Of a DNA stretch of 64,000 nt, positions 6,001 to 58,800 are shown piece after piece. The first letter of the stretch is position 1; every line of letters begins with the position of its first letter. This stretch comes from Amoebophrya sp. A120 (lineage: Eukaryota > Protista > Dinoflagellata): contig CAJINV010000002.1 of NCBI GenBank assembly GCA_905178155.1, positions 9,616,650 to 9,680,649 of the forward strand, read 5' to 3'. The notes beneath the pieces were generated by a model. The model had not been told where the DNA came from, did not search any database, and was given only the letters and a program-made list of their open reading frames with translations. Position numbers and translations under genes: made by a program.

Positions 6001-8538
6001 TTGTTTCATACTGCGACGCGTCCACGCCGGTTACTACGCCGGCCCCCCAAACTTGTTTCGCCAGCGATGGAAAGCTGCAGGTTTCCGGCACGTGCTACAC
6101 GTGCCAGACCTCGGCCGGGGGGGCTCTGGTGCCGTGCACCTGTCCGCCGGGTCAGTACCTGGCGCAACCCGCCACGGGCACCGTCGCTTCCTGTGCTCCG
6201 ATTCCGGCAGGGTATTACCAGCCGTCTGCGGGCATTCACTTTGGCATGGGAACCGCTGCCACCAGTGGGATCCCGTGTGCGAACGGCGAGTACCAGGACA
6301 TGACCGGCCAGACTTCGTGCAAGAAGTGCCCCGTTTATGCAATGTAAATTTCCTGTACATGTACAGAATGCATGACAGATTTCGCTAACTTGCTGTGTCC
6401 AACTTGTCATGCTACACTAGGATTGAAGGCAAGTTTTGTCATGGAGAGACTGCATTTGTACATGTACAGGAAATTTACTGTGGATACCGTTGTCGGATCC
6501 ACCACCAGCCCCGCGAGTGGCGCCACCGCCGCCACTGCGTGCGTCCCGCCGCCGACGACCGCCGCACCCACGGAAACGACCACCGCTAATCCGGTGTTTT
6601 CCGCTGTGGACCACACGCACTCGGTCACCGTGGAGGATTCCGGCGATGAGGAGCTGCGTACCTGGACGATCGTCGGGTTTGTCGTGCTGGGTTTGCTGGT
6701 GGTGGCCATGTTCGGGTGCATGCTCTCGCGCGGCCCGGGCGGCGGCGGCAACGCGGCCATGAGCGGGGCGCCCCAGCTGTCCCGTCAGGCGTCCGCGGGC
6801 CCCGGGATGCTGAAGGGCTCGATGATGATGAAGGGCAAGTCCTCGATGAAGGGCGCCGGCAAGTCGGGCATGATGTCGAAGGGCTACAAGTCGGGCATGA
6901 AGGGCCTCGAGTCCAGCGGCGAGGAGTCCGTGGAAATGGCCAACTGGAAGGGGGGGAAGCGCAGCGGCAGCGGCTCCACGCCCCGTGGCATATCAAATGC
7001 AAAAATGTCTGGGTCTGGAAACTTGTGATGCTGTGTGGCGTATCATGAGGAGGCGACAATTGCTGGCTCAGCATGACAAGTTTCTGAGCTCCTAGGTGTT
7101 GCCTATTCTGCATGACAAACTACGTTTCTGCATGACAGAATAACCCAACAAGGCAACACTGGAGCTCCACCTTGCTCGAGGGCTTGGATGGTAAATCAGG
7201 TCAGCCACATCTAGCGCCCACTGGCCGTACTCATGCGTAAGCAATCGCAAGCGGTTCGGCGGATGCGGTCGGGTGGTACCTGTAGGACGTGGAACGGGTG
7301 TCCACCTAGGGGTATTGGCAGAGGCTAAATCTGTTCTAACGCCACGGTATTGGCAGAGGCTAAATCTGTTCTAACGCCACCCTGACAGGAGTCAAATGTC
7401 AAAACAACAACAACATGCATGACAGAAAAGTGGGGCTCTTTGGTAATGTGCATGACAGATTTAAGAGTCATACCAGACAAGCATGACAAACTTGCATTCT
7501 TCCAGACCCAGACATTTTTACATTTGATACGGCAAGGGCAGCTACAAGAAGGGCGGCTCCAAGAAGAAGGGCGCCAGCATATCCTGACAAAAATGCCCGC
7601 CTCGTCCGAATCATTCAAAAGAAGAGTTCATCTAATATATGGATTTGCGCACGTTGTAAATTTGTCTTGCATACAGCGAAAGCTGCAATAAGAAGAGTTA
7701 GTACCCCCGGGAGGTGCATGAAGATTCATTCTGTGGGCGGTCTGTGTTCTTGCGTTTGTGCCTACAGCAGCGAGGTCACTAGTCTTGCTCGGCTGCTAGT
7801 ACACACCTGGTAAAAATGCCTCGTAAGCAACGCGACCATTGTGCTATACAGAACTGCTCTATGACGTACTTAATTTACACAAATGTGCGTCGCAAGTTTC
7901 CGACTTTAGTACGTCGGCGAGGGCGGTTTTTTCACTTTGATGCCGCATCTACTCCGAGGACGACGATGATGTGACGGCGTCCGACCGCTCAGAAACCCCG
8001 CGTTCGGGATATCAAATTGAAAAGCGCCCCGCCCTCGGAGGTTGCAATAAGTGACTCACCTGTAGTACTTTTTTTTGCATGAGGCTTTATCTGAATGCAA
8101 AATGACGCTGTTTCCACCATGCATGAGAGGACCGCCACACTACACAGCCAAGCTTGATGGTTGTCCAGCTTGTGCTAGGTGCGGTAAGCAGGAGCGTCGC
8201 TTTCCATGAGAAGCGCAGCTCTTGTCCCGGGCCTTGTTGCGATAGAGCTTTACAGTATCCACTCGCCCTTAAGATTTGTATGTGCTCTTGTTATAGTACA
8301 TGTGCAAAATGGCTGCAAATGCTTCAGGTTTGCGGTTCAAGATGAAAGACCCCCCATGGTGGGGTCGTGGGACGCTTTTCAATTTGATAGCGGCAGATCG
8401 GGCTCCAACTCGAGCCGCAAGGGCAAGAGCGGCAAGAAGGGGAAGGGCAAGTCGGGCAAGAAGCCGTCGGCGGATGCCCGCGCTGGCTCCGGGTCGCGCA
8501 GGAAGAAGGCGGGCAGCGGCAGTGGCCGGGACGACTAG
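1..8538 (+). CDS. Large multi-exon Cys-rich single-pass surface protein (GCC2/GCC3 / ephrin-receptor-like Cys repeat, TM helix, Lys/Gly/Ser-rich tail); 5' end probably outside window; exons between ~2760 and ~5950 unresolved
   Basis: ORFs 51-1490, 1881-2252, 2456-2767, 5958-6347 (CTCPPGQY..CAPIPAGYY..CANGEYQDMTGQTSCKKCP) and 6372-7028 (TM WTIVGFVVLGLLVVAMFGCML). Removing introners at 1378, 2068, 6336, 6991, 7580 and 8010 joins neighbouring exons in frame; the last exon ends ...GSGSGRDD* at 8538. Linkage across the unresolved middle is assumed. Confidence 0.6.
1378..1855. mobile_element. Decayed TIR introner (non-canonical intron 1377-1859)
   Basis: Left TATTCCGTGTGAGAACGTTC vs right GGACGTTTTCGCATAGGATA; removal gives in-frame KT|AGSPAAEVGVASQYY. 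Confidence 0.7.
2068..2376. mobile_element. Decayed TIR introner
   Basis: TAGCCTCAGAAAAAGGCGTCT / AGACATTTTTTTTTCGTTTGATA; removal joins SY|VNTQAK...AMTGTVT in frame with ORF 2456. Confidence 0.55.
6336..6486. mobile_element. TIR introner, perfect 5-bp TSD CCGTT
   Basis: TATGCAATGTAAATTTCCTGTACATGTACA / TGTACATGTACAGGAAATTTACTGTGGATA; joins CKKCPV|VGSTTS. Confidence 0.9.
6991..7529. mobile_element. Family A introner carrying a nested retroposon-like insert
   Basis: TIR TATCAAATGCAAAAATGTCTGGGTCTGGAA / TTCCAGACCCAGACATTTTTACATTTGATA; TSD TGGCA/CGGCA; joins TPRG|KGSYKKGG. Confidence 0.92.
7141..7415 (+). mobile_element. Short (5'-truncated) non-LTR retroposon-like insert inside introner
   Basis: Flanked by 12-bp direct repeat TGCATGACAGAA (7129-7140, 7416-7427), ends in (AAC)n; homologous to 17938-18210 including tandem GGTATTGGCAGAGGCTAAATCTGTTCTAACGCC x2. 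Confidence 0.8.
7580..7942. mobile_element. Decayed TIR introner
   Basis: TATCCTGACAAAAATGCCCGCCTCG / CGAGGGCGGTTTTTTCACTTTGATG; TSD CAGCA/CCGCA; joins KGAS|IYSEDDDD. Confidence 0.7.
8010..8389. mobile_element. TIR introner
   Basis: TATCAAATTGAAAAGCGCCCC / GGGACGCTTTTCAATTTGATA; joins ETPRSG|RSGSNSS in frame. Confidence 0.8.
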
Positions 8539-11500
8539 ATGAAGCTACGGGAGGTCGTCACTAGCCTGAGATTGTCTCGGGCTTTTTTTCTTACCGAAAT
8601 GTAGTTCATTTAGTATGTTTATGTACACACAATCTGAAGAAGATCACCGCGCATTAACACAAGTGGAAGTTGTTGACAATCAAACCAGATCTTTCTACTA
8701 GAGTACAGTAATTACTTATCAAAAATCCATCAATTTGTTTGAAAGAGAGAGCGCCATTCTGTTTGCAGCCTAAGTTAGAAGTGCGCGACTCCTCACAGAA
8801 CGACACAAACCGCCCCGTCCGCCCCGAAAAAAATGGGCGCACCGAAAGTAAGTATCCGGTTAAATTGCGCAAATGAACAGTACGACTTGCATTGACCACA
8901 GCAGAAGTACAATTTTGTAATGGGAGTTTCTATCGTTGTAAATTTTTAAACTCACCTAAGTTCGGCATTTGAATTTCTCGTCCCTCTCGATCATGATTTA
9001 TCGGCCTTTTTGACCACGTTTAGCATAACATACTTGTATCCATTTCAATTTATTTCTATTATTCCTTTCTTTCCGCGCTCGAAAAGCAAATCAAAATCGT
9101 ACTACATTTCAAGCACAACCTGCACCGACAAATTTCGACAGGACGGATAAGTAAAAACCTATTATAGCCGTTGCCGCGCACGTTGACCGACGGAACTACT
9201 ACGTGTATCGCCACCCAACGCATCGCATCTGCTGCAAAGAGGTGCAAATACGTATCCAGAGCGAAAAACCTACCCACGTCCGCTCCGTTATGCTGCATGC
9301 AGATTTGCGCTTTTAGCAGGAGCAATTGTATTGGGTTGCGTTATTTTGTATTTGTGGTTGGGATGGGGAACATGCTCCAATTTGTGTCATAAGGAAAGCC
9401 CGTGCTTGCTCATCCATGACACTTCTACACTAGTGACTGAGCTTGCTCATCGGCGCGGCTCTCTAGACGAAAACTTGTCATGATGCCCAACTCGCAACAG
9501 CTTTATAAAAATATATTGACTGCTCGTCCGGGGTCGTGGGTACGTTTGTCGTCGGGATAAGGAGTAAGTACATCGATAACAGGCGGAAAAACGTGGAGTT
9601 TCTTTAAAAGAACATTAACTACTTTTTGCGGCTTTTTGTTTTGACCTCATTCATCTTGCTCGTTATTTCCTTTGTACTTTTATTGTATCGTTATTTTTTC
9701 AATCGAAGAATCGCATGTCATTTAGCTCTACACTACGCATTTACGTTCTTGAGGTTTTCCCTATCTATCACCCGTTGACTAGAAGATGACGAACTAGTAT
9801 CGCTACCGGAGGACCATGTCGTGGCGGGCGCACACTACAATGCTTATGATCTAAGTAGAGCACCACCTGTTGTTGAGATCGTCAACTAACAACTTTCTTC
9901 CGCGCCCTCTCGGCCGGAAAAGGACAGGTGGAACAATGCTTATTATCGTAGATGCACCGGCAAATGTACAAAGCAGTACGCTCTTCATGTCACTATCACT
10001 CATGCAGTAGAAGAAGACTGTTGCACTTTCACTTACAGTGGGGGAGCAGCTGCTCAGAATAACTACCAACGGTGCCCGCGAGAAGTGATAGCGCTTGAAG
10101 TGTACTGTAGCTGTTAAATGAGTAACATGTCGGAAGTATTTTTGTAGTTTTGTGCCTCGTTGCAATTATAACGCCGATGCAGCTATTGTCGCTGCAGTCA
10201 CAAAATTAGTCACCCAACAGACTATTTCTCCGATGGTAAAGAAGCCTACGCAATCATCTCATGTCGAAAAAGAGTTCTTTTTTCACACAGCACGATGCGC
10301 CAGCTCTTTGTCTCACCCCGCGCTTCTAGTACAGCATTGCAGTAAGAATTACATAGATCTCACCTAGCAACTACGAGTACGACCCCGATTTGAAGCAGTA
10401 CCCCAAGGGTTCCGATCGCAGCAGAACAAATAGAGTTCGTTAAAAGTTGTACATGCTCCTGGAGGTGGCCGCAGATGCACAGGTACTTACTTCGAGTTGT
10501 ACCTATGTCCTGCTAGTGAAAGACCCACCAAGATAAAAGTATCGAACTGTGGTGCCGTCCTCTACTTTGCGCGAGTTGACTTTCGTCAACCGCCCTGGAG
10601 ACGAAGGATAAGTCTTGGAACCGTTTTTACACAACTACCATCTCTGGAAGCTTTTTTACTGTTGCGTCGGAGTCCGTGATATTAAGATTGTAAAAAAAGG
10701 CGACAGGCAGCATCAGCAACACACAAGGGAACCCCTCGAGGTGGTCCGGCCGATGAGCATTTCTTGAGAACTACAAGCGAAACAGGGCAGCGTCAAGCTG
10801 CACTGCCCAAGTCCAGGTCCTTGCGCATCCCGGGGCTGCGTGGTACGCGTCAAGCTTCCTGTTTTTCGAGCCACGCTATCCCGAATGCGGTAGGATCACT
10901 CGGACTAGGACGTAGGATTCGCATGAATGCATATTCGCGCACGGAAAACTTCTCCGTCCGTCCCGAAACTCATTTTTTTTTCACCCGTCGACTCCTGCTT
11001 ACTTTATTTTTTTCAGTCTTTGCGCTGCTTGCAGACCTTCTACTCGCACATTTACAGCGTGTCTTAATTGTTATTTTTAGCTCATTTTAAGAGTCAGTTC
11101 TACGTGTACCCACTCAATGAGGCCGAAGGAGTGGCGAAGGCTTCGTCAGGCGTGCTGGACTTCCTCGACTGACGAAACAAACATGAGTAGAAAAAAGTGC
11201 CTGGCTCCATGCAGCTTTTCATGCTATCCTGGCAAGTAGAAGAGAAGGCTCTGTGCTGCCTAAGGCTGCTTGTGCAGTACTTTCTTTGACTGACACCAAC
11301 ACTAACAATATGATAAAAAACGAAGAGAAATTATAGTAACAGGAGGCGACTTGTTGATCTTGATGCCAGATTAGGTAGTACTTTATTCACCTTCCTGGTG
11401 CCGCTTATTTCGATTTCCTAATCAAACTCGCTCGACGCCGCAGCATTGCGGCGGTCGCGCCAGAAAAAGTTAAGGGGCCACACGGATCGATGATATTGCA

Positions 11501-12789
11501 AACGTCTTGATGCTGCTCAATATATGTCGTTCAAAAAAGAAAAACGCGCCGAGTGTGTGGAAACGGGGCGCCTGCTCCTTGCCGAGAAGTGGGTAGAAGT
11601 TCGGCCAGTGTTCGTCTAAGAATCCACACGCAAGCTTCCCAGCAGTTCGCGAAGTGTTTGATGAAAGGTCGAGTACAGAATGTTTGTGTTTCTGCACTTA
11701 ATCGGTCATATTGAGGTAGTACTTTTAGCACAACTAGTTTGGACTAGTGTGGTCGCGCAACGAGAAGCGCGCCGCCGTTAGCTGTTTCTAGCACGGCGCG
11801 TCTAAGTCTATAATCTAAGGTCGCCACATAGCTAAAGTGCTAAAAGTCGTCAGGTCTATGTCTAATTGTGGGAAATAAAGTTAATCGCAATTCTTACTGT
11901 GCCTCACGCCGTTCCCCCGCCCCAGTGCCAGCTGTGCAGCCAGCCGGGCAGCTAGGAGAAGCAACTGGGGTGCAGTGTGCGGTGGAGTGGCTGTTGAACG
12001 CATATTCGAAATCGAATCATGATCATGTGAAATGGAATGCAAATCCAAAGCTAACGACATCAGCCCGCTTTTGGGTCTGCGGTTCTTTGGCGATAGGAAC
12101 TTTTGGTCAAGTCAAAAAGTAGTCAAAGTACATCAATATCAATACTTAGGTTGAACTTGAGTGCAGAATGACCGCCAAAGTGGTTGATTGAAGCTCGATC
12201 GCGCAAGATTATGTCGACGTAGCGTTTTCGCCAGGAACACGGCCGGCACCTGGCTTCACTGCCGCCTTGCTGTAGTTCAAGAAGTAAGTAGCCGGTTCGT
12301 GATGTAAATCAGGTACAACACGGGGGCAGATTCATCACCATGTTGTTGCGCGGTTGTAAGACCGCCCCTCAGTTCGCCTCATGGCCGGTTCCGTACGGCC
12401 CGCGCGACTGTCGTACGAGCCAACGGATTAGTATATCATGTGGAAAAATTGTACAATTTGTCAACTATCTCATGCTTTCGCGACGCGACGGACACAGATC
12501 ACGTCTCCTCAAGTACTAGCACGTTTCTCTAGTGAACGGAAAAGAGCCGTCGGCTGGCTTTGTCTTTGTTCCGAAGTCTATCATCAAAGGAGCATCTCCA
12601 TTACGGGGACTCATTTACATTTGCCGCCCGCATGTAAGAAAATTTAATCGAAGCGCTTGCCGAGGAGAAAAAGAAATACTGCGGCACTTCGTTGTCTGCC
12701 AGGTGCATTTGTTTCTCCCCTCGCGTCACGCCATCTGCGATGTGGGCAAAAAATGGGGCTAACTTTATTGTCGCGGTCTGTGTACTAGC

Positions 12790-15700
12790 ATGACAGCTGT
12801 GGCAGGTTCGTGCGGTTTTTCCGTCCGATGGGAGAGGGTTGGGGCTCTGTCATTTGGGTGCGCCGGCGGAGTTGTGCGACCCACGTGGTCCTGGTCGGAG
12901 AATCTCGCGTACAACGCCCGCGTGGCCGGGATACGCCATTTCCGCATAATGCCTGGGTTGTTACCAATGGCTGGCGTATCTGCTCTACGTCGGAAGAGCG
13001 AGGCTTGGACGTCGGAGAGGACGCGCAACAACGACTTTGTCGTGAAGCGACGGTTCTGCAGTGCGAGTTCCACCACGGTGGGTCCGGGAGCAAGTACTGT
13101 TAGTTCGGCTAGTTCGGCAAGCGGCGGGATGGCAACGGATCTCTCACGCTTTACCAAATAGAAAAATCCACCCGCCCCTGCATGCCGTTGACACAGCGTG
13201 ATTTGTGTATCCACGGGAAGAAGTTTTTCAGTTTGCAGGGACAGGGAAAGGGTCGATAGAGATCATTGTTCTGACCTTTCTTGCATGTCTACCAAGTACG
13301 ACAACCAGAGGCACCGGACGTCTCTATTTTTTTCAGGAGAAAACGATAGCCGGCTATGACAAAGTTAACGTTGTTGAAGCGTGAGCAATAAATTCGCTTT
13401 GAAAACAAGAACGGAGCGAGGCGGGTTCTGACGCTTTGATACTCCTGCGCAACGTTGCCATTATTGCGCACGTAGACCACGGCAAGACCACTTTGGTGGA
13501 TGAGATCTTGTCTCAATCCGGGATGGCATATGGATGTGGACAACTCGTCCCCGTTACCTTCATTTGTCAAACACCTAAAAAAGGGAAAAAAGCGGCAGAC
13601 GCAACTGCAAGCACAATGGAGGTTATTTGGCGTAGTCAATCCATACCGCCCATACCTGTTCGGCGTGGTGAACTTGTCATGTAGAAACGGCCAAGTACTA
13701 TCTAGCGGCAAAAATAGGATTTGGCTCTTTGCACGAAAAACGAGGGGGGGTTGTCCGCAATCATACGAGCGGCGACTGGCGGCGGGGGGCCAGGCACCTA
13801 GACAGCAATGCGCTGGAACAGGAGCGGGGGATTACCATCTTGAGCAAGGTCACCCGCATCAACGCCCCAAATCGTGGCGGGTACACCTTCAACATCGTGG
13901 ACACGCCCGGACACGCGGACTTCGGCGGCGAGGTGGAGTATCTTGAGTGAAAGCGTCCCAACCGTAGATTTGATATGCAAATCTGCATGCCTGAAATCAA
14001 ATGTGATGCGCGGGCGCGCCATGAGGAGCAATTTCTTATCGCATCTGAGAGTAGTTTGTCATGCTAGAGTCAGGAGTTGATGGCCGATTTTTTAGGATGT
14101 TGCTGCTGCATTAGCTAAAGAGGATTACGCCGCGAGCCCAAACCTCCTGGTGTGCGCAACAGCTAAAACTTCTTGGTTTATTGTGGAGCAAAATCCCCAT
14201 ATGATTGACACTGGGAGGGTGACGTTTTTCCACAGCATACGGAGCGGGTGTTATCCATGGTCGAGGGAGTGGTGCTTCTCGTCGACGCGGCTGAGGGTCC
14301 GAAGACGCAAACGCGGTTTGTGCTGCAAAAGGCGCTGCAGATGCGGCAGAGCGTTAGCGGCGCGGCGGGGGGGCCGGACGCAGCAGAGAAGACGCGCGTG
14401 ATCAAGCCGCTCGTGGTGATTAACAAGGTGGACAAGCCCACGCGGCGGGCGTACGGGGAGGTCGAAAACGACATCTTCGACCTGTTTGTCAGCCTAGACG
14501 CCACGGAGGAGCAGCTGGACTATCCCACCCTGTACGCCAGCGGGAAGGAAGGATGGTGCGTTGCCTCCTACGACGAAGCAATGCAGATCGTGGACGCTGG
14601 CGCAGGCCGTTCCGGCGCGGGGGCGGTCCCGTCCGAAAAGCGGAACCTAGATGCGCTGTTTGCTGCGATCGAGCAGCACGTGCCGCAGCCGCCGCATCCG
14701 TCGGTTCATCCCGGTCCTCACACGGCAGTCGATAGTACTGGGTCCAGCACAGCGGGGGGCAATAGTACTAGTAGCGCCAGCAAGCCGCCCCCGTTTGCGA
14801 TGCTGGTCTCGCAGTTGGATCAGCTGCCGCAGCTGGGAATGACCGTGACGGGGAAGATCAGTTCTGGCACCGTGCAGAAGGGCGACAAAATGGACGCGAA
14901 AAACGGTCGCAACGAGCTGGTTGGCCAGGGCGGAAAAGTGAAGGAGATCACGGTGGTGCGGGGCACGAAGAGGGAGAAGCTGGACCGCGCGAGCCAGGGT
15001 GACATTGTGTCCCTCTCCTTTGCGGGCGGCTCTTCGTTCGCGCCCGCCAGCGGGAGTGCTACAACTACTTCGGAGGCCGGGGGGGCGGGAGACAGCACCG
15101 CCGCTGGTGCTGGTGGGCCGTCTTCCTCGGGCGCCTTTCAGCCCCGCTGGACGCAGACCGTCTTCCACTCGGGGAGATCGAAAGAGGTGGAACCCATCCC
15201 CTGCACGGAGAGTATGGGGCTCTCAAACGTTACACTCTCAACTGTTACATGGATTTGTCACGCAAAATGAGCATCAACGTCCACACAGTGAAGCTGCCTC
15301 ACATGACAAATTTTGGAAGGGCTAAACAGCATGGGAATCTGTGCCGAATTTGTAATGCAAGAGTTGCAAGAAGATCCGGCCTTTCCCTGTTGCCATTCTT
15401 GCATCACAAATTCATGAAACAGTTGAGAATGTAACAGTTGAGAACGCCATAGAGATCGATCCGCCGGTGATCTGTGTGAAAGTGACAGTGAACGACGCCC
15501 CCGGCGTATGCAAGAAAAAAACTGTGTAAGTGTAAATCTGTGATGCAGAACATGCAACAGAGTTACAGCTGTCATGCCAGACAGCGATGCAGTTCTCTTT
15601 TCATGTGTGTTTTCCCTTACAAACCACGCATGACAGGTTTTCTCTGTCATGTAGAGCAAATTTGTGATGCTGTCAGCCAAAGAAAGTTACACTAACACAG

Positions 15701-18700
15701 TTTTTTTCTTGGATACGGCGCGGGCAAGGCGAAGTTCATCGCGTTGTACGACATCTACGCGCGCCTGCGGAAGGAGGCGCTCGTGAACGTAGCCATCGGC
15801 GTTGAGGAAAATGCGGACAAATCGGCGCTAAGGCTGAGCGGACGCGGGGAACTGCAGCTGGGGATTTTGATCGAGAACATGCGCCGGGAGGGCTACGAAA
15901 TGACGCTGTCACCGCCTCGCGTCGTGACCACTATAGATCCCAGCGACGGCGTCACGGAGTTGGAGCCCTGGGAAAGCGTGCAGGTGGACGTTCCCACGGA
16001 CCTTTCGGCCACCGTCATCGAACGTATCACACCAAAAAGTGTTAACGTTAACGGAATTTGGCATGCAGGAATGCGCGATAAATGATGCCCAAACGTGTAT
16101 TGCATAACATGCATGATAGCGAAAATTTGTCATGCATGACTGCAATGCCCCAAAACCGTTAACGTTAGCACTTTTTTGCTTGATAGAACGGCTTTCCAGT
16201 CGCGGAGGCGAGCTGAAGGAAATGGTATCAAATGTAAAAATGTCTGGGTCTGGAAACTTGTGATGCTGGGTGGCGTCTCATGATGAGGCCACAAATGCTG
16301 GCTTAGCATGACAAGTTTCTGAGCTTCTAGGTGTTGCCTATTCTGCATGACAAACTGCACACAGAGAGGGCAGGAAAGGAGAGTGGCGCTGCAAGCAGTC
16401 AAAGTAAAAGTAGCCGGGCAAATGTAGAAAGAAAGCAAGAAGAAAAAGGGGAAGAAAGAAGGGAAGGAGAGACACTTTCTGAAACTATACTGCGACTAAT
16501 CGAGAAAGAGAAGAAGAAAGCAGAGGAAGCCGGTGACGAGATGGCGCAGGGGGCATTCAGAATAATCCAAAAAGCGACGAAACTGTTGCAGGAGGTAGAG
16601 GAGGCGAATAAAGGAGACGATGGAAGAAAGTCAAACGAAAAAGAAAGGGGACGGGAGGAAGGAGACCAAGAAGAAGCGATCAGCGAAGACGGAGAAGAGG
16701 AAGAAAAAGAAAGCTTCTACGGGGCGCAAGAATATGAAGGCACTCGGAGAGGATACGTGCTCAAAAGAGGGGCGACGGGACAGGGATACTACATAGATCA
16801 GGGTCCAGAAGAGGCAGCGCGAGCATTTTTTCGGAATCTGGTGGCGTGGGGGGAGGATGAGAAAAGGGACGCGATTAATAAGGAGCGGGCGGAGGAAGGT
16901 CGAGATGAAAAAGAGGCGGACCAAGAGCAGCAAAAACGGAGAAAGGTGGAGAAACAAGACAAGAAAGCGAACCAAAACGGTGGAAACGAAGACGAAAAAA
17001 AGAAGCAAACGACGGAGGCCTCTAACTTCCCCACAGTCGAGAAATTAATGGAAGATGACCCCATGACATTGATGCAGAAAGAGAAAGAACAGCGGGAGAA
17101 GAGGAGGAGGAGGAGAAGAGGAGGAGGAGGCAGATGCAGTACGAAACTCCTATGCAGCGAGAACTAGCCCAAATGTATAGAGTCCTAGAAAAAGAAAACA
17201 GCGACGGAAAATGAATGAAGAAAGAGAAAATAGTGACTGCAGCGCGTTTCTTCTTTTTTGGATGAGATTGATGAATGGATAGCAAAGTAGAGGCAAGAAG
17301 AGGCCTCATACGTGAATGAAACAAACGAGCAAAGAAGACACAGACCGGGGCTCAAGGCGAAAAGGGCAAATGCGGGGCGTTCTGGCGGGTGCAGAGGGAA
17401 GAGCGTAGACACAAAACGCAACAGAAAAGAGCGATAAAAATGAGGTGACTGCGTATGGACCTTGTCTCGACACGTTCCCGCCAGCCCGGAGGGGTGCGGC
17501 GATGCTAATCATTTCGTTCCCGCCAGCCGTAAAGGCACGGCGCTGCTTTTCCTCTCCTTGCGCCGGCGGACCGCATGCACTGACGCGCTAGGAAACGAAA
17601 AGAAAAAGAAAGAGAAGAAAGAGAAACTATATAAAAGAAGTGGTGCCAGGGTTGCTAATTTAAAAGACTGCGCTAATGCAGCACCCCCCTTCCCCAAGGG
17701 GTCCCCCCGGGGCGGGCGCGATGGCGGCTCTGCGAATGCGGAGCTCCGCGGGCCGTTTCTATGGAAACGCATATAAAAGGGTGCGGGAAGAAGATCGGCA
17801 AAACGTGTCTGAAAGGGACACGCCGTTGGGTCGCCCGCCATCGTGATAGGATCACCGTGTCTGATCATTAGACCCCCTGTATACTTTTTAGCGCGCAACC
17901 GGCCACGCACGTAGTTCTTCGAGCAAGTTTGTAAGACTAACCCATCAAGGCAATACTGGAACTCCACCTTGCTCGCGGGCTTGGATGGTAAGGCAGGTCA
18001 GCCACACATAGCGCCCACTGGCTGTAGCCATGCGTAAGCAATCGATAGCGGTTTTGCAGGTGCAGCCGGGTGGTAGTTAGGATGTGGAACGCGTCTCCAC
18101 CTAGGGGTATCGGCAGAGGCTAAATCTGTTCTAACGCCCAGGTATTGGCAGAGGCTAAATCTGTCTAACGCCCACCCGCCAGGAGTTAAATGGTGCTACT
18201 ACTACTACTACTGCATCACAGAAAAATAGGGCTCTTGGATAACGTGCATTACAGATTTAAGACTCATGCCAGAAAAGCATGACAAATCTCGCAATCTTCC
18301 AGACCCAGACATTCTTGCATTTGATAAATGGACGCGAACAGCAAGAACCGGACCACGCTTCGGTTCGAGATCGCGTCGCGCAATTTTTTCGGTTTGCGCG
18401 CCTGGGTCACCGAGGCCACGGGGGGACAGGCCGCCGTCGCCTGCGAGATGATTCCGCCCCGCCCGCTCCCGCCCGCGGCCGAGTTGGAGGCCGAAAGCTC
18501 GCGGCCGCCCGTCTTCGTGTCCGCCAACTCGGGGGTGGTGTACCTCGGGGACCACCGCAAGGCAAGCATGAAGGGCAAGCTGTTTGTGAACGCCGGGGAC
18601 CACGTGTATGAGGGACAGATCGTGGGTATCCTGATTAAAAACGTCCCCACACCAGAGTCAAGATGGGAAATCTGCTAGACAAATCAACCAGCTTTGGGTG

Positions 18701-19173
18701 TTTGGCATGACAAGTTTGGCCCCGTATTGTAATCCTGTTTCGCTAGCTCCAGCAGCATCACTGGCCTAGCACATCATGCTGGTTCTAGCATCACAAATTC
18801 CAAAACACGACCAGAAAATGCTTCTCATGGGGCTCCGCATCAGAAACTTTTTTGGCATGCAGATTTGCATGACAACTCTGGGGTGGGGACGTTTTTACTC
18901 AGAATAGTGGGCGAGATCTCCTCCAACACGGGGTCGCAGGCCCTACACGTGGACGCCGAAATCAACCTGTGCCACAAACACGACGGCTACGCCAGCTGCC
19001 ACGGGGCGTCCGGAATCGGAACGCAACTGTCCCTGGAGGAGATGTTGGTGTATCTACAGGAGGACGAGTGCTTGGAGGTGAGGCCCGACCGGCTGGCAAT
19101 GCGGAAGTTGTTGCTCAGCGCCGTGCAGCGCAAAACCAGACTAAAGCAGAAGCTGAAGCAGGCACAGAACTAG
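12790..19173 (+). CDS. typA: TypA/BipA translational GTPase (likely organelle-targeted), 9 exons, all 8 introns are introners
   Basis: [146 protein letters not shown]; Arg/Ser-rich N-terminal extension; start codon uncertain. Confidence 0.93.
13152..13441. mobile_element. Decayed introner in typA
   Basis: TACCAAATAGAAAAATCCACCCGCC / GGCGGGTTCTGACGCTTTGATA; removal gives DLSR-L|RNVAII. Confidence 0.6.
13529..13765. mobile_element. Introner in typA, TSD decayed
   Basis: TATGGATGTGGACAAC / GTTGTCCGCAATCATA; removal keeps frame QSGMA|[13 protein letters not shown]. Confidence 0.75.
13939..14239. mobile_element. Diverged family B introner (reverse orientation) in typA
   Basis: TSD TGGAG/CGGAG; restores GGEVE|RVLSMV; left interior resembles 57154 copy. 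Confidence 0.85.
15213..15451. mobile_element. Family E introner in typA
   Basis: TATGGGGCTCTCAAACGTTACACTCTCAACTGTT / AACAGTTGAGAATGTAACAGTTGAGAACGCCATA; TSD GAGAG/GAGAT; restores PCTE|IDPPVI. Confidence 0.9.
15507..15715. mobile_element. Family D introner in typA
   Basis: TATGCAAGAAAAAAACTGTGTAAGTGTAA / TTACACTAACACAGTTTTTTTCTTGGATA; perfect TSD CGGCG. Confidence 0.92.
16025..16185. mobile_element. Introner in typA
   Basis: TATCACACCAAAAAGTGTTAACGTTAACGG / CCGTTAACGTTAGCACTTTTTTGCTTGATA; perfect TSD GAACG; restores VIER|LSSRGGEL. Confidence 0.92.
16226..18326. mobile_element. Family A introner expanded to 2.1 kb by a nested insert
   Basis: Family A TIRs, perfect TSD AATGG; removal restores GELKEM|[14 protein letters not shown]; flanks collinear with the 6991 copy. 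Confidence 0.93.
16366..18210 (+). mobile_element. 1.85-kb retroposon-like insert with Glu/Lys-rich ORF remnant, structured 3' region and (ACT)n tail
   Basis: Junctions CTGCA-CACAGA (left) and CTGCATCACAGA (right); last ~270 bp homologous to 7141-7415; ORF 16331-17167; no RT motifs seen. Confidence 0.75.
18627..18906. mobile_element. Family B introner in typA
   Basis: TATCCTGATTAAAAACGTCCCCACACCAGAGT / ACTCTGGGGTGGGGACGTTTTTACTCAGAATA; perfect TSD GTGGG; restores QIVG|EISS. Confidence 0.93.
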
Positions 19174-20188
19174 GGACAGCGCAAGGAAGCTGCTCGTCCG
19201 CCCGGAGAAGAGGCAATCATGCGTTTTTGGTTCCATTTTTAGCCCGCGATGAGTGTCGTTTCTATAAACGATTGACAGTAGTTCCTTGAATGGCGTCAGC
19301 TTCCCATGCCTGAATACTCATTACTGGTGACCAGAAATCAAAGAAGGCAAGAGTCAAAATAGCAAAAGTGACAATAGTGCCCAGTGGCGGGAAGAAGTTT
19401 TACTATACTGCGAAGCGACTCTACCGACCGTGGATACTTCCTCATATAGCGAGTACTTCTTTGTTCTTCTGTTGAATTTGGTGACGCACTTTTTCTTCTG
19501 CTCTGCAGAACAGTCGAGAACCTGTCGCTGAACCAGCATCCACGAAAAGAAATGGCTTTTGCAGGTTTCTTCTCCGATTTTGCTTGACCGGACGTGAAAC
19601 CAGATCTGATGAAAAAGGAGATCGATGGGCACACCGGGCGAAATGATCTCTACGTCTGGCCACTCGATCCCTTCTTGTCTAGCTGTACCATCGTAGATAA
19701 TTACATGCAGGGTGTACCACGTTCACGCAGCAGTTCTCCTAGGATTGCCTACCTCAGATCGGCGCTTTCTGTGCGAATTCGTGACCACCCTCCATGTTGT
19801 CGTGCTTCGCACCGCAAGCAGGCGGCTTTTCGCGAATCCAAGAAGGATCACTCGCGTTTTCTGGTGCGGCATAGGAACAGTGAACTTACCAGAATTTTTG
19901 CGTGACGAGCCACGCAATGCCAGTTCTTTTTTGAAAAGAAGAAGTGTCGCTCATAAACATGTATCGATACTTATTGCCTTGCTGCATTCTTGTATGCTGC
20001 AGTCGTCCACAGTGCCAGTACCAGTAGTAGTGAAGACCGTCTTGTTCTGGTGCTGGTGGTGCGACACTCTAAGTCGGTGATAGCCGAGTGTGTCTCCAAC
20101 TCCACAGCTAGAGAAGCGATCCTCATTAGTACACTACTTGTCACAGTCACGCTTACGCTTTTTATTTACAAAAACCCCATCAAAAGAT

Positions 20189-27311: not shown

Positions 27312-34880
<7,569 letters not shown>

Positions 34881-35911: not shown

Positions 35912-38900
35912 ATGAAGCAGCGGGTGGCGTTTCGCATGCTGAGGCAGTTGGGCTTCGTTCCCAACGCCGAGGGCAGCATTGTGATTCGTGAGGAGGAGCA
36001 CGCCGAGCTTTACGAGTCGCTGCTTTCCTTGGGTTTGCTGCCTCTCCGGCCCGCCTCCGCGGTTCGGAACGAAGGCGGCGGCGGAAATAGTCGCCAACCA
36101 GTATTGCAGTGAAAAATGCCCCCCATCCCTAAATTGCAAAAGTTTGTGATGCGAAGTTTCCAAATGAAAACTTTTTGTCATGCATGAAAGGAGTATGGAT
36201 CTTTCTGATGCAGAATGTAGGCGTGTATCGCATCGCTTGCATGACAAGTGCCGCTCTTGCTAGGGTCTCGTGCAATCCAAATTTTTGCTATTCACTATTG
36301 AAAACCTGTGATGCTGATAGATGCAAGAGGGCGAGTGTTTCATTTGGAAAGGTTTGCAATACAAATGCTCCCAAGTTCGGGGGTGGGGGCAGTTTTCATT
36401 GTAATAACCAGGCGTGATCCGGGTTCGGGAAGATGGCAGCGCGGACTATCAAATGCAAAAATGTCTGGGTCTGGAAGGTTGAAACTTGTGATGCGCATTT
36501 CAGAACACAGAAAAATCTCTCATGCATAGGCAGCAAAAGTTGCCCATTTTGTGTCACCAAAGTCAGAGATCTGTCATGCGGATTCTGCATTGCGAACGCT
36601 TCTCGAAACCTGTGATGCTAGAGCTTCCATGCCAGACCTTCTGTGTCATGCAAAAGCAGCATGATTCTTCCAGACCCAGACATTTTTACATTTGATACGG
36701 ACCGGTTTCTCGCGAAACATTTTCCAGGTCCTGGAGGAGTAGATCCCGAACTGCAAGGCGGCAGGGGTACTAGCTTTGGGTCCAAGAAGATGCAGTTTCC
36801 GTTTCTGGCAAAGTTGCTGGAAGCAGACAATGAGGAAGGTGCGCAGGAGCCATCCGATCTTCCCAACGGTTGTGCAAGAGTGAGGTCTGCGACGGCTTCC
36901 CTGACGCAGGCGGCGAAAGAGGCGGTGCTGCGACACAGAATCGCCCAGCACGCGGCTGCAAATGTAGTTGAAATTATGGGAACTACTTCTTCTACGCCAG
37001 AGGACGAGCACGTCGACGGGGTTGGAGGGTCATCTGCCTGTGCGGAACTACAAGGAGCAAGAAGACGACTTCAGCACGAGAGGTTTGACCTGAGCAAGGC
37101 GGAACCGCACGAGATCTACAATGAGAATTACCACGTCACCATTTGCCACGACGAGCTCGAGGACGAGGCGTTCGTGGACGCCTTTTTCACCGAGCAGTTG
37201 CTTCCCGAGTTCCCCGGTGGCAATCACGATCATCTCCGTCCGATGTATTCGTCGGAAGACCAACATCCGTGCTCGCCTTCCTCTTTCTTTGCGGGGAAAA
37301 GAAACGCAGCCAGTGGCGGGAGCGGATTTATGGCTGGCAGGAAGGTCGACAGAACTACGAAAGAATTTTCACAGGGGCGGGTGAACAACCTTTTTCTGAA
37401 GCAGAAGAAGACTTCTAGAGGAGATGCGGCCACCAGGGATCATCGCCCCAACAGGCAAGGCAGAGACCAGGGCGAGAAGGAGATGAGAGACAAGGGAGGT
37501 GCAGCAGTGGCAGAAACGCCGCTTTCTGCACGGGCGAAAAACCGTCTGGGCATTCTTCCGCCCGAAGAACATGACTCCGAGGTCACCTCCGAAAGGAGCG
37601 GCAAAGCGACCCGCCCGGGGTCGGGACGAGGCACCGCTTTTAAGGCGGGATCCTCATCAGCGGGGAGTAGTGCTGCGTCTGGTGCGGCCGCGCACGGCCA
37701 CGGCTCGTTTCCGGTGGCAGGCGGGCGAGGTGGACCTGTGTTATTCAGTGCAAATTGTTCATCTGAAATTCCAAAAGTACGGCGGACGCGGAAGTTCGTT
37801 ACTTTAGCTTGGCATCAAAAGCGATGTGATGCTGCCTTATATTTGCAGAAGAGTTTCTGTTTAGTCCACCATAGGGGGTGAGTTGCTGATGTCAGTATCA
37901 CTTCCGAAAACCACCTACATCGCGTTAAGCTTTTAGACGGGAGAACGCAGAAGAAGAAGTCCTTGGTCAGATGATGTGCAGCCGTGTTGAGTCATGATAG
38001 ATTAGTAATTTGCACTGTATGCTATCCCAGCACGGCGTATACGGAGGCCAATTTCCAATACGAGTTGCAGCACCAGAGGATCCACTCCTCTCCGTCGGCC
38101 CGGAGGAGGCGGCGGTTGCAAAGCTTCGAGAAGAAAATCAACGCGCCGCCAAAAAAATCTTCCGCCGCTGCGAATGCGGAGGCAGTCGAGGACGTTGCTG
38201 AGAATTCGGGTACTAGTTCGGGCAAGCAAAGGAAGCCGTCCATGAATACCATCACCAACACGTTTTGGCACGGTAAGCCGCCACGAGAAAAACCGGACCC
38301 CGAGGTCGTGGCGGCTCGGCAGGCGGTGCGTGCCATGTTCGATCGCCTCGCGGAGCCGAGGCAGATCCCCTCTAAGGAGGACGACAAATTCAGTACTTTC
38401 CGTAATGCTGATCGACGTCTTGCGAAGAGCTACAGATAAAACCAAAACACAGTCGCGAGCGCTGAAATAAAGTACGTACTAAACGTGAGCTGCAGCTGCA
38501 TGAAGGTAAAATGCTATTTTTCACAAACGCTGTTGCAGAAAAATTCGAATTGCTTCATGAAATTCTATGACAGAAAACCAAGTCGTCGCCAAGCGGACAG
38601 CGGAGGAGCAGCGACTCGCGTGCGAACGGCTGATGCAGAAAAAGGAAAGCAGCGCGTCCCACGCAGGTCCGTCCTTGCAAGAGGATGTGGTCGTGGCTGA
38701 CAGGACTGCAGAAGAGTCGTCGGAGAACATCAAGCGGGGTAGCAGTCAGAAAGCTGCTCCTTCCGCCGGGCCGGTGCGCTCGGCCGCGCAGCAACCGCAA
38801 ACTTTTACGGTCGGTGCCGCGTATCGTGCCAAAATCTTGCCGGACAAGAGGAAAGGAGCCAAGGCAGCACACGCTAATTTGGGAGGGGGCGTCGTGCTGC

Positions 38901-55800: not shown

Positions 55801-58800
55801 CGAAGTTTTGCTGGACGCCATCGAAACCTCGGAGGACGCCTACCCTAGTACATTGGCGAAGCTGAGTACAACTACAGAAGGATTCGATAGCGAAGGTAGC
55901 CAGTTATTCAGGTCGGAGGTTTTTAAAAGCGGGGAAGATCATGAAGCAGTTACCCGCCCGCAACAGGCGCTCAACACCGCGGTGGACAACCAGGACTACA
56001 GCGGGGACCTCCCTGCCATTGCACCAAAGACCGTCCTTCCGGAGCCAGAGGAAATTTTCTATTCCGCCAGCTCACAGCTCCCATTCGAGTCCGTCAAAAG
56101 TAGTGCTTCTAATCCGATTACAACACCTTTCTCGACTAGAGGAGGAATTGGGGCCACCACAGGCTCGGACATTAGTGAGAACGACTACCAGCAGCTTATT
56201 GAGTCGTCAGAGTCGCTGGCGAGTGGGCGCAAGGACCAAGGAAGTGCTGTTGCTACTGTTCCGCCGGTGCAATTAGGGGGTCCACAACATCTCGGCTCGC
56301 AGCAAGAGCAGGACGTGCCCCCGCAGATGACACAGTTTTTGGGGAACGTCGTGCGCAAACTGCTCCAGGACGTGAAGCAAGCTGTAAAGAGCGAGCGCAA
56401 CTGGCAGAGCTTTGATCTGACGCATGCCGCGACGCGGCCGGCGCGCCTGAAGCAACTCTACGCAGTGTTCAGCTTGCTTCCCCGAGGGAAGTATGATTTG
56501 CGCTTGCATTTTGACTCCTTCGATAAGGAGCCTAGTAGTGAAGAAACAAGTAATGGTTTATTCGGGGCACCACAAGTGGGCACCGAAGGTGAGGGTCGCC
56601 GTGAAGGAGTGTTGTCCCTGCAACGTGGACGAGGGGACGATCATGCGGCTCCCAGTGGCACGACATCAGCGGTGACCACTTCAAGTGCGTCGAATGGTGC
56701 CCTCGACGTGCCGTCAACTACTGCGGAAGAAGTTCATCAATCTTTTCGTGCCGCGAAGTACCTGGACGTGTCCTTCGAAAAGTCCGCCGCTGGGGCGCTC
56801 TCACCTTCCGGGCGGAACCAGCAGACCGCTGGGTCCACGTTCCTATGGATTGCAAAAATGTCTGGGTCTGGAAGATTGCAACTTGTCGTGCTGTCTTTGG
56901 AGTCTAAAAATATCTGTATTGCGTGACCAGCAACAGGAGTCCAGTTTGTGTTACGCGGAGAGGGAATTTCTCATGCGGAAGAGTCATCAGGAAGCACTCT
57001 AAAAATCCGTGATGCTAGATCATGCATTACATGCATCATGGATCATACAAAATATGCATCACAAACCCCGGAATCTTCCAGACCCAGACACTTTTGCAAT
57101 CCATAGTTCCAGCTGTTGCACCATCCCGCGATCGAAGACGACCGCAAGCACCCTATCCTATTTAAAAACGTCAGCACCCCATAGTTGTAATGCAAATCTA
57201 CATGCTGAAAATGTTTTTCATGCGGAGCCCCATGAGAAGCAGTTTCTAGTCGTGTTTTGCAATTTGTCATGCTCCAATCAGCATAGTATGCTAGGTCTGC
57301 GATGCTGCTGAGCTAGCTCAAACAGCACTACACTACGAGTCCAAATTTGTGATGCAAAACAGCCAAAACTTGGGGATTTGTCTAGCCGATTCCCCATCTT
57401 GACTATGGTGTGGGGACATTTTTACTCAGGATACACCCGGGGTCGCTCCTGCTGGGCTTCAGCTTTGCAAAATTTCTCAAGATCAACCGGGAGTTGTCGC
57501 ACATGCGCTTCGTTCGACCGGGCTCCGAGGGCGCGGGCCTGTGGAAAATCATTCAGGCAGAGTTTTTTGGAGCTGCGCGCGGCGGCGACCAACTCCTAAA
57601 CGGTGGAGCGAACAATCAGGTGAACAGAGCAGGGGCAGCATCGTCGATTACGGCTACGAATTCGAATTATTTATCTAGCGGGACCACGAGCGCAACAAGA
57701 GACGGCGACTCTGGTGCGCTGAGCAGTTCTGCATTCGGATTAGCAGGGGCAAGCCACCTGAGCAAGATCATGCAGCCGACCTCGCAGCACCCCTTCCAGC
57801 ACGCCAGCCGGGGATCGTTGTTTGCGAACCCGTGGCACGACGACGACGAGGAAGTAGACCATTACGGTGCCTCCACCGGCGCACCGGCTTTCGAGCAGCA
57901 CGACGAGGACCAGAGCTACTTCCATCGCTCGGGACCTTCTTCTACTCCCTCGCCTGCCAGCAGCGCAACGACCCCCTTGGTCAGCAAGGTGGAGATCTTG
58001 CGGAAGCACCACGAGAGAGCGACGTCGAACAACATCAAACATTTCGATAACTTTGAGATATTTGTGATGGCGGACAACGGATCCAACGGCTCCGTGGACA
58101 CCTACCTCGGGACACAAATTCTGGAGACGTACATCCAGAGGAACATTCCGCTCTACGAGCGCCTGCACAAGCTCCCGGCCCTACAGTTTCCGGAGGTTTT
58201 GCCCCCCGACGGTGCTTGCTTCGGCATCGTGCTGGCCTTCCTGCTCACGTCGATTCGCAACTACGCGTTCGGAGCGCAGCAGCCGTCACCGCAGCTCGCG
58301 GGCACGAACGACATAGAAGGAAAAAGTACTCAAACTACCAAGAAGCTATCAACTTCGTCGTCGCTGTTCTCGCCGGAGGCTTTGAACCGGTTTCAGTCGC
58401 CGAATATGCTGCACCGAACGCTGCAGGCGGTGTTCGAGTCCGTGATTTACTTCGACCGTGCGCGCGAAAAGAAGATCGGAAGCCATTACGGGCGCATCAT
58501 CAACGGGCTCAGTTCGTTGTTCGGGTTCGAGATTGGCGCCCCGAAGACCTATTTTCTGGCGGAAGACCCCGAACTGCTACAGCCGCAAGTAGGTGGGAGC
58601 ACAAGCAGCGAGGATGCGAGCGAGCGGAGGACCCCCGAGAGGACAAAAAGAACCTCGATTTTGCAGCAGGTGTTCACCGATGACATCCAAGATGGTCTCT
58701 ACGTGTTTACCATCGGCAAGGACGGGGACCAGCACGCCACCGCGATTGCGAAGGTGGACAATCAGATTTTGTGGCTGGAACCGAACCAGGGGCTCATCTT

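Follow-up and report, generated by a model that had tools for sequence, protein, structure and literature searches.

Related retroposon-like inserts at one motif-marked site of introners in Amoebophrya sp. A120

Introners of Amoebophrya A120 carry inverted repeats composed of TAT, seven bases and at least three A, together with direct repeats of 3-5 nt and non-canonical borders (PMC7789003, PMC12130899). In a 64-kb stretch of Amoebophrya sp. A120 DNA (contig CAJINV010000002.1, positions 9,616,650 to 9,680,649; hereafter the window), two introners of one family, family A, contain related inserts at the same internal position, as had been noticed in an earlier reading of the stretch from its letters only (the sequence-only reading). 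Here, we confirm this arrangement, add 11 more copies and consider it highly probable that the inserts belong to a retroposon of the type lacking long terminal repeats (non-LTR), which recognises a motif of family-A introners, uses target-primed reverse transcription (TPRT) to insert and would be spliced out together with the introner.

Data and copy search

The analysis used the window, public sequencing runs containing window sequence (X1, X3-X7 and X10 below) and one scan of a metagenome collection. Run X1 contains 72% of the sampled words of 13400-19300. Copies were sought with one exact 20-mer from the insert 3′ end, a search blind to the flanks that returned 13 loci. Two of these matches (L001 and L010) had only 24-25 nt in common with the insert and were left out as chance matches, leaving 11 scan loci that form, with the two window copies, the set of 13 copies analysed. 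The scan copies are on contigs named JACKZZ01, from one fragmented assembly, at loci that differ from those of the window. The search of a viral collection gave 0 matches.

Two introners with related inserts

Both hosts have the ends TATCAAATG...CATTTGATA, terminal inverted repeats of the TAT-N7-AAA form known from A120 introners and 5-bp duplications, within the 3-5 nt range of the A120 direct repeats. The first interrupts a reading frame on the + strand that is restored when the introner is removed with one duplication copy, and the second lies in a gene for the GTPase TypA/BipA.

6991..7529, + strand: host family-A introner (subfamily A′) with the short insert, duplication TGGCA (6986-6990) / CGGCA (7530-7534)
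7101..7119, + strand: upstream target motif GCCTATTCTGCATGACAAA, the short-insert 3′ junction 9 nt downstream
7129..7140, + strand: left copy of the 12-bp target-site duplication (TSD), its last 4 nt also matching the element (microhomology)
7141..7415, + strand: short insert, subfamily alpha, 5′-truncated, with an (AAC)n tail to 7415
7311..7380 and 7383..7401, + strand: two 35-bp repeats and predicted terminal hairpin of the short insert
7416..7529, + strand: host right arm of the short copy, 114 nt, beginning with the right TSD copy (7416-7427)
13800..19173, + strand: TypA/BipA GTPase gene (part checked), containing the long composite introner
16226..18326, + strand: host family-A introner (A′) with the long insert, AATGG duplication at 16221-16225 / 18327-18331
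16336..16354, + strand: upstream target motif in the long host, whose left arm ends at 16358
16359..18211, + strand: long insert, subfamily beta, likely 5′-truncated, with a (TAC)n tail at about 18196-18211
18212..18326, + strand: host right arm of the long copy, 115 nt
29487..29748, - strand: empty family-A introner, same subfamily as the host of L009, with its target motif likewise on the - strand
36447..36697, - strand: empty family-A introner, target motif on the - strand
56844..57105, - strand: empty family-A introner whose subfamily includes seven filled hosts of the scan loci; the target motif is again on the - strand

Most of what the sequence-only reading said about this pair holds. 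Subtraction of the inserts returns the hosts to 252 and 248 bp, against 251-262 bp for the empty family-A copies of the window, and the short insert, whose match to the long one is confined to the final ~270 bp of the latter (226/254 aligned bases), ends in (AAC)n and is flanked by two perfect 12-bp copies of TGCATGACAGAA (7129-7140, 7416-7427). The long insert has the expected simple-repeat tail, which we read as (TAC)n. The near-perfect TSD ascribed to it is doubtful, and the copy itself is probably 5′-truncated, because the host left arm stops at 16358 without ~5 host bases (GTTYC) that are present in empty copies and because another insert copy in X1 matches from 16359 on, with 62 further bases (and no listed joint to a host arm). 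The sequence TGCACACAGA at this copy would represent an ~11-bp TSD that has eroded and includes microhomology, or else point to a small deletion of the target, and we give the bounds of the insert as 16359(-66)-18211.

Empty copies, which the sequence-only reading had proposed to look for, exist in the window, in X1 and in X7. X1 contigs join the left and right arms directly, with 4-8 bases between them, and the empty-site sequence GTTTCTGCATGACAGAAAA, with a single copy of the duplicated sequence, stands behind 16358 in 43 contigs of X1 and 66 of X7; all four joint rows from left to right arm skip 1852-1856 nt. None of the X1 contigs spans the 5′ junction of the window copy itself; contigs drop such links, and this was counted neither way. 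The summed X1 contig depth rises from ~67 over the coding part of the insert to hundreds or thousands at its 3′ end, a gradient that is in line with 5′ truncation and gives no copy number.

One target site in a larger copy set

All 13 copies lie inside introners, 12 of them in family A at the same aligned position and in three host subfamilies. In 12/13 the insert 3′ junction is 9 nt downstream of the motif GCCTATTCYGCATKASAAA (L013 is uncertain by 2 nt), which is present in every family-A copy examined, 118-141 nt from the left end. Right arms measure 113-115 nt in 10 of the 12 family-A copies and are shortened by internal deletions in the other two; none of the 13 uses the weaker occurrences of the motif that family A has at other positions. 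The chance of hitting this site would be ~1e-4 per random insertion (five family-A copies in 64 kb, a 3-nt site, one strand), compared with the 12/13 seen. Retroelements have been called target-specific when >20% of their flanks fall in one repeat (PMC4494074); here, 12/13 flanks fall at one site of family A. Insertion mostly at unrelated sites, the outcome that would have spoken against the sequence-only reading, was thus not found.

That reading had placed the target after the site, as TGCAT(G/C)ACAGAAAA. Targeting of a single site stands, and this target sequence does not: the bases after the junction vary among targets (TGCATGAC, TGCATCAC, CGCGTAGC, CGCGGAGC, GATTAGGT and CACGTAGC), and it is the upstream motif that is found in several subfamilies. 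The 13th copy, L008, is found at a look-alike motif close to the right end of an introner from a different family. On a target profile built from five sites, with L008 left out, its upstream 28 nt are among the top 19 of the 127,944 window positions scored, and this result favours recognition of the motif over a fixed distance from the introner ends. Empty copies of the family that hosts L008 were observed at 39801-40120, 61693-62018 and 63282-63603, and a matching site near 63315 scores high on the same profile.

The inserts fall into two subfamilies that are ~87% alike over the last 260 nt, alpha (the short window copy, L003, L004, L005, L007, L008 and L012) and beta (the long window copy, L002, L006, L009, L011 and L013). 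Tails are present in 13/13: that of beta is (TAC)n, while alpha copies have one of (AAC)n, (ACGAT)n and (ACGAA)n. There are no terminal repeats. All four (ACGAT)n tails (L004, L005, L007 and L012) occur in a host subfamily whose target begins with CGCG, where the next two bases of the tail would match, a hint of pairing between tail and primer.

Independence of the insertions

Both ends are visible in 8/13 copies, and these have eight different 5′ ends, with insert lengths of 70, 106, 114, ~260, 275, 373, 839 and ~1853 nt. Six of the eight have TSDs, of 5, 7, 12, 16, 17 and 18 bp (the last in L006), each copying its own host sequence, and 5′ microhomology of 1-4 nt is seen in 5/7. The 5′ junction of L004 combines a jumped piece of the element with a copied piece of host, and L013 has a 14-nt host duplication, of the motif. 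A common 3′ end with variable 5′ truncation, TSDs of variable length and a simple-repeat tail are the hallmarks of TPRT, and the likely class of the inserts, a retroelement, is judged from these junctions.

Within the window, left arms (124/133), inserts and right arms (100/114) are similarly alike, and the window alone cannot discriminate between two insertions and one ancestral composite introner that was spread by DNA transposition and gave short forms by internal deletion. Besides the similar divergence of insert and right arm, the 4-nt microhomology at the 5′ junction of the short copy would agree with such a deletion. This scenario is refuted by the larger set and retains practically no probability, because practically identical inserts (~100%) were found in hosts of 61-62% identity and because host trees reject common descent. 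The insert identity of the short window copy and L003 is 1.00 and that of their hosts 0.61; for L002 and L009 the values are 1.00 and 0.62. A Mantel test on the 12 family-A copies found no correlation between the identities of inserts and those of their hosts (rho -0.05, p 0.65). A tree was made of 23 right arms, 12 of them from filled and 11 from empty hosts (an empty copy with an unrelated insert was left out). Filled and empty hosts are intermixed in it, and alpha hosts or beta hosts as one clade are rejected (approximately unbiased test, p 4e-74 and 1e-36), so that the comparison of host and insert trees called for by the sequence-only reading ended in incongruence. Empty copies and host-specific TSDs also speak against a single composite, and the short form, with its own TSD and of the alpha subfamily where the long copy is beta, is not an internal deletion of the latter. 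As judged from junctions and trees, these data demonstrate that each copy is a separate insertion, as had been supposed for the window pair.

Orientation relative to host genes

Gene direction was called with a codon model trained on 11 window open reading frames (ORFs). At the junction, 10 of the 12 family-A inserts are in sense with the host gene, the call being weak for two of these. For L007 and L011 the junction scored ambiguous or opposite, and sense was assigned from neighbouring exons of the contig. Among 12 empty copies the target is in sense in three and antisense in nine, with three weak calls. The bias of 12/0 versus 3/9 gives a Fisher p of 3.4e-4, and firm calls only (8/0 versus 3/6) give ~0.007. 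It could be due to selection, to targeting coupled to transcription, or to a bias in replication direction, given that gene clusters of this genome read one way.

Anatomy of the element

In the longest copies, the long window copy and L003, an ORF precedes roughly 1 kb of non-coding DNA, and X1 contains a colinear 1724-nt relative that is longer at the 5′ side.

16361..17214, + strand: E/K-rich ORF, open at the insert 5′ edge, with a frameshift at a (GAG)n run near 17105
17473..17560, + strand: two ~43-nt tandem repeats, also in alpha copies
17640..18195, + strand: non-coding 3′ region, in which alpha and beta share 83% identity
18106..18174 and 18177..18195, + strand: 35-bp repeats and predicted terminal hairpin with changes on both stem sides

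The 5′ walk towards a reverse transcriptase (RT)/endonuclease ORF that the sequence-only reading had advised led only to the E/K-rich ORF, with no RT within 1.85 kb. Stop-free shuffles of this ORF were 0/20,000. The window version is 31-35% identical, in conserved blocks, to a 332-aa ORF of L003 that is intact and open at the contig start. No Pfam family scored above cut-off, an Atlas search gave one match at 0.76 and then none, and weak matches were obtained to 17 unrelated-looking proteins, nearly all on one ~45-aa motif. The ORF carries the motif FxGxRxGYVxKxGxxGxGYY (window 16715-16800; L003 430-520), which belongs to no Pfam family and recurs, often in tandem, in unrelated proteins, one of them with PIH1 domains. 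The structure model is of low confidence (predicted template modelling score, pTM, 0.21) and has helices and one hairpin. The product is likely an ORF1-like or accessory protein, rich in charged residues.

Over the last 560 nt the two subfamilies have 83% identity, far above that of the ORF. The predicted terminal hairpin has the loop GGAGUYAAA, and two of its five pairs change on both sides. Rfam gave no match at the gathering score, and no head derived from a small nuclear RNA (snRNA). Short interspersed nuclear elements (SINEs) are non-coding and have a tRNA, 5S, 7SL or snRNA head; here, the longest copies carry a conserved ORF, and the true 5′ end would lie beyond the copies seen. A ribozyme like that of hepatitis delta virus was considered and rejected: a descriptor of its topology matched 2/5 copies, both alpha, with weak stems. 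Between 17430 and 18192, CTAA and CTRAY words, which are branch-point-like, are ~2-4x enriched over shuffles, often in predicted loops; this enrichment is not used in the argument.

Possible splicing of the composite introner

Once six introners, the long composite included, are removed with one duplication copy each, TypA/BipA has a single 683-aa frame. The TAT...ATA introners observed in 13400-19173 number at least six; they belong to several families and have 5-bp duplications, and there is a further, earlier interruption near 13525-13800. Runs X3-X6, guessed to be RNA, contain 38-39% of the words of the TypA stretch, about the exon share. One X6 contig of 2392 nt matches 18326-18500 and continues for 1538 nt upstream without matching the host right arm; the upstream TypA exons from 13800 total 1496 nt. 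If X6 is indeed RNA, this contig fits removal of the 2.1-kb composite from the TypA mRNA. The raw RNA reads of X10, with 81 on introner ends only and 0 on TypA exons, are uninformative on splicing.

Proposed mechanism and alternatives

In the mechanism that we consider highly probable overall, a sense copy would be co-transcribed with its host gene, and an RT-endonuclease would bind the 3′ stem-loops of the transcript; its gene would lie further 5′ in full-length copies, or a partner long interspersed nuclear element (LINE) would provide the enzyme. The same enzyme would bind the upstream motif and nick the bottom strand. Reverse transcription would begin on the short repeats with slippage, as in the LINE UnaL2, which would account for the differing tails. 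Synthesis would usually stop early, and the distance to the second-strand cut would vary, from which truncation, microhomology and TSDs of differing length would result. The introner ends would stay intact, so that the enlarged intron could still be removed.

Several results weigh against this reading. Motif targeting alone does not predict the strand bias. None of the copies, of which the longest has 1.85 kb and both long ones are open at the 5′ side, yielded an RT or endonuclease, and searches at 136-581, 435-2000 and 582-2000 aa gave no full-length or fused homologs of the ORF. The covariation of the terminal hairpin comes from two lineages, and global folding of the 3′ region is no better than that of shuffles (z -0.09 and -0.02). 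A clean TSD is missing from two copies, L013 (no more than 2 bp) and the long window copy (ambiguous). All 11 copies from outside the window were obtained with a single exact 20-mer in one fragmented assembly, a search that diverged copies at other sites could escape, and contig starts cut 5/13 copies. As to splicing, the X6 contig is judged by its length rather than by the sequence of the splice joint, its RNA status is a guess, and an introner-free allele would be possible.

The strand bias and the helical ORF would find a place in a different account, in which an unplaced retroelement lineage is an obligate hyperparasite of introners, promoterless, transcribed and spliced within the introner, and confined to sense introners by transcription-coupled targeting; its coiled-coil-like 3′ protein and the conserved 560-nt RNA end would then serve targeting. 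We regard this as possible but doubtful. Strict sense orientation (12/12 versus 3/12, p 3.4e-4) also resembles a filter, as would be left by selection in a haploid, gene-dense genome that tolerates a retroposon of low preference only in sense and only at a harmless spot, and an unrelated 131-bp insert with a 14-bp duplication has likewise been kept in a family-A copy of L012. That insert, however, shows that other introner positions tolerate inserts, 0/13 copies lie outside introners despite much intergenic DNA in the window (e.g. 8.6-13.3 kb), and selection would yield neither single-base precision nor the motif match of L008, which makes this explanation quite unlikely. We consider it very improbable that the insert moves from filled to empty introners by homing, that is, homology-driven repair or RNA-templated conversion. 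Thousands of similar hosts would provide the homology, read-through RNA would carry the host right arm and a fixed 3′ junction would follow; but conversion should bring donor flanks and one junction, whereas the TSDs copy their own hosts, all 5′ ends differ, identical inserts occur in hosts 61-62% alike and L008 is in a different family. Read-through RNA may still help priming.

It would be unexpected, finally, but leave the conclusion on targeting in place, if the enzyme came from a Penelope-like or another unplaced RT lineage rather than from a LINE or LINE partner. The 3′-most ORF is helical and non-enzymatic, unlike the end of a typical LINE. No pseudo-LTR, head-to-tail tandem or inverted 5′ copy was seen in the copies examined, and no hammerhead core in five long copies. 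Penelope-like elements can be site-specific and also show variable TSDs, and Naiad and most Chlamys elements are without hammerheads (10.1101/2021.04.23.441226). The stem-loop with a short-repeat tail fits LINEs of the UnaL2 type instead (PMC1636434). Returning to the motif-recognising non-LTR retroposon, we compare it below with known elements; its own enzyme would be expected 5′ of the copies seen or in a partner LINE.

Relation to known systems and significance

R2, in 28S rDNA, has a fixed first nick and variable 5′ ends. The present inserts share the variable ends, and probably the fixed nick and a dependence on host transcription; their target, unlike that of R2, is a dispersed selfish repeat in which the bases at the cut vary, and no R2-type ORF or ribozyme was found. 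Co-transcription of R2 with its target is mentioned in PMC4494074. Tx1L of Xenopus laevis sits in Tx1D, a non-autonomous piggyBac family (PMC4494074, PMC6719617). Here, too, a retroelement would be aimed at a non-autonomous DNA transposon, which can be read as a low-harm niche; the target differs in that it interrupts coding exons and acts as an intron, in a likely alveolate host, and no Tx1-type RT or endonuclease was found in the present copies (<=1.85 kb). The crocodilian Tx1-Mar LINEs and SINEU-3 insert in Mariner-N4_AMi, with 313/347 SINEU-3 copies in one family of miniature inverted-repeat transposable elements (MITEs); their truncated copies argue against hitch-hiking, and duplicated, truncated or unaltered targets occur (PMC4494074). 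Most of our copies are likewise in one host family, with duplicated, truncated or unaltered targets. In contrast to these elements, ours have no snRNA-derived head (Rfam) and a protein-coding part, the motif spans several host subfamilies and a second family, and co-orientation with the host gene is strict. The stringent LINEs UnaL2 and ZfL2 have a 3′ stem-loop with a loop starting GGA and short terminal repeats with slippage (PMC1636434), to which the predicted stem-loop, its GGA-starting loop and the short terminal repeats of our inserts correspond; unlike UnaL2, which is not so described in the accessible text of PMC1636434, they are site-specific, and tails differ between near-identical copies.

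The A120 introners themselves are the host here, and their accounts in PMC7789003 and PMC12130899, in the portions accessible, describe no nested, targeted insert. A supplementary table of PMC12130899 labels four A120 families as non-LTR without giving sequences, so that overlap cannot be judged; none of three motifs of our analysis occurs in 12/14 supplement files of that paper. No retroelement aimed at introners was found in the literature searched, accessible portions of PMC7789003, PMC12130899 and PMC12235515 included and most subscription papers lying outside the search. The novelty suggested by the sequence-only reading therefore holds for introners as a target and not for retroelements that target DNA transposons, which Tx1L/Tx1D and Tx1-Mar/SINEU exemplify. 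By analogy, the element would work like these, the new feature being a spliced introner as its target.

An intron that is itself a selfish DNA transposon would be a new safe niche for site-specific retroelements, in which a retroelement can live inside the coding part of ordinary genes, TypA being an example. If a 250-bp introner is still removed at 2.1 kb, the non-canonical splicing signals of Amoebophrya must lie in its ends, and filled and empty copies form a natural series for testing them. The strand bias offers a sharp test of transcription- or replication-coupled targeting against selection. For the design of site-specific insertion tools, it would be of interest to have an endonuclease that is guided by an upstream motif and accepts varying bases where it cuts. 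Were the element an obligate hyperparasite, it would report directly on the recognition and splicing of non-GT-AG introners.

Further observations

A 158-bp tandem repeat of ~2.5 copies at 29085-29477 adjoins an empty family-A introner, and 30727-31056 is a very GC-rich short-period repeat. In L012, the family-A introner with the unrelated 131-bp insert and its 14-bp duplication spans 407 bp (8955-9361 in locus coordinates); that insert ends within a secondary GCATGACAAA motif and is possibly a second element aimed at introner motifs.

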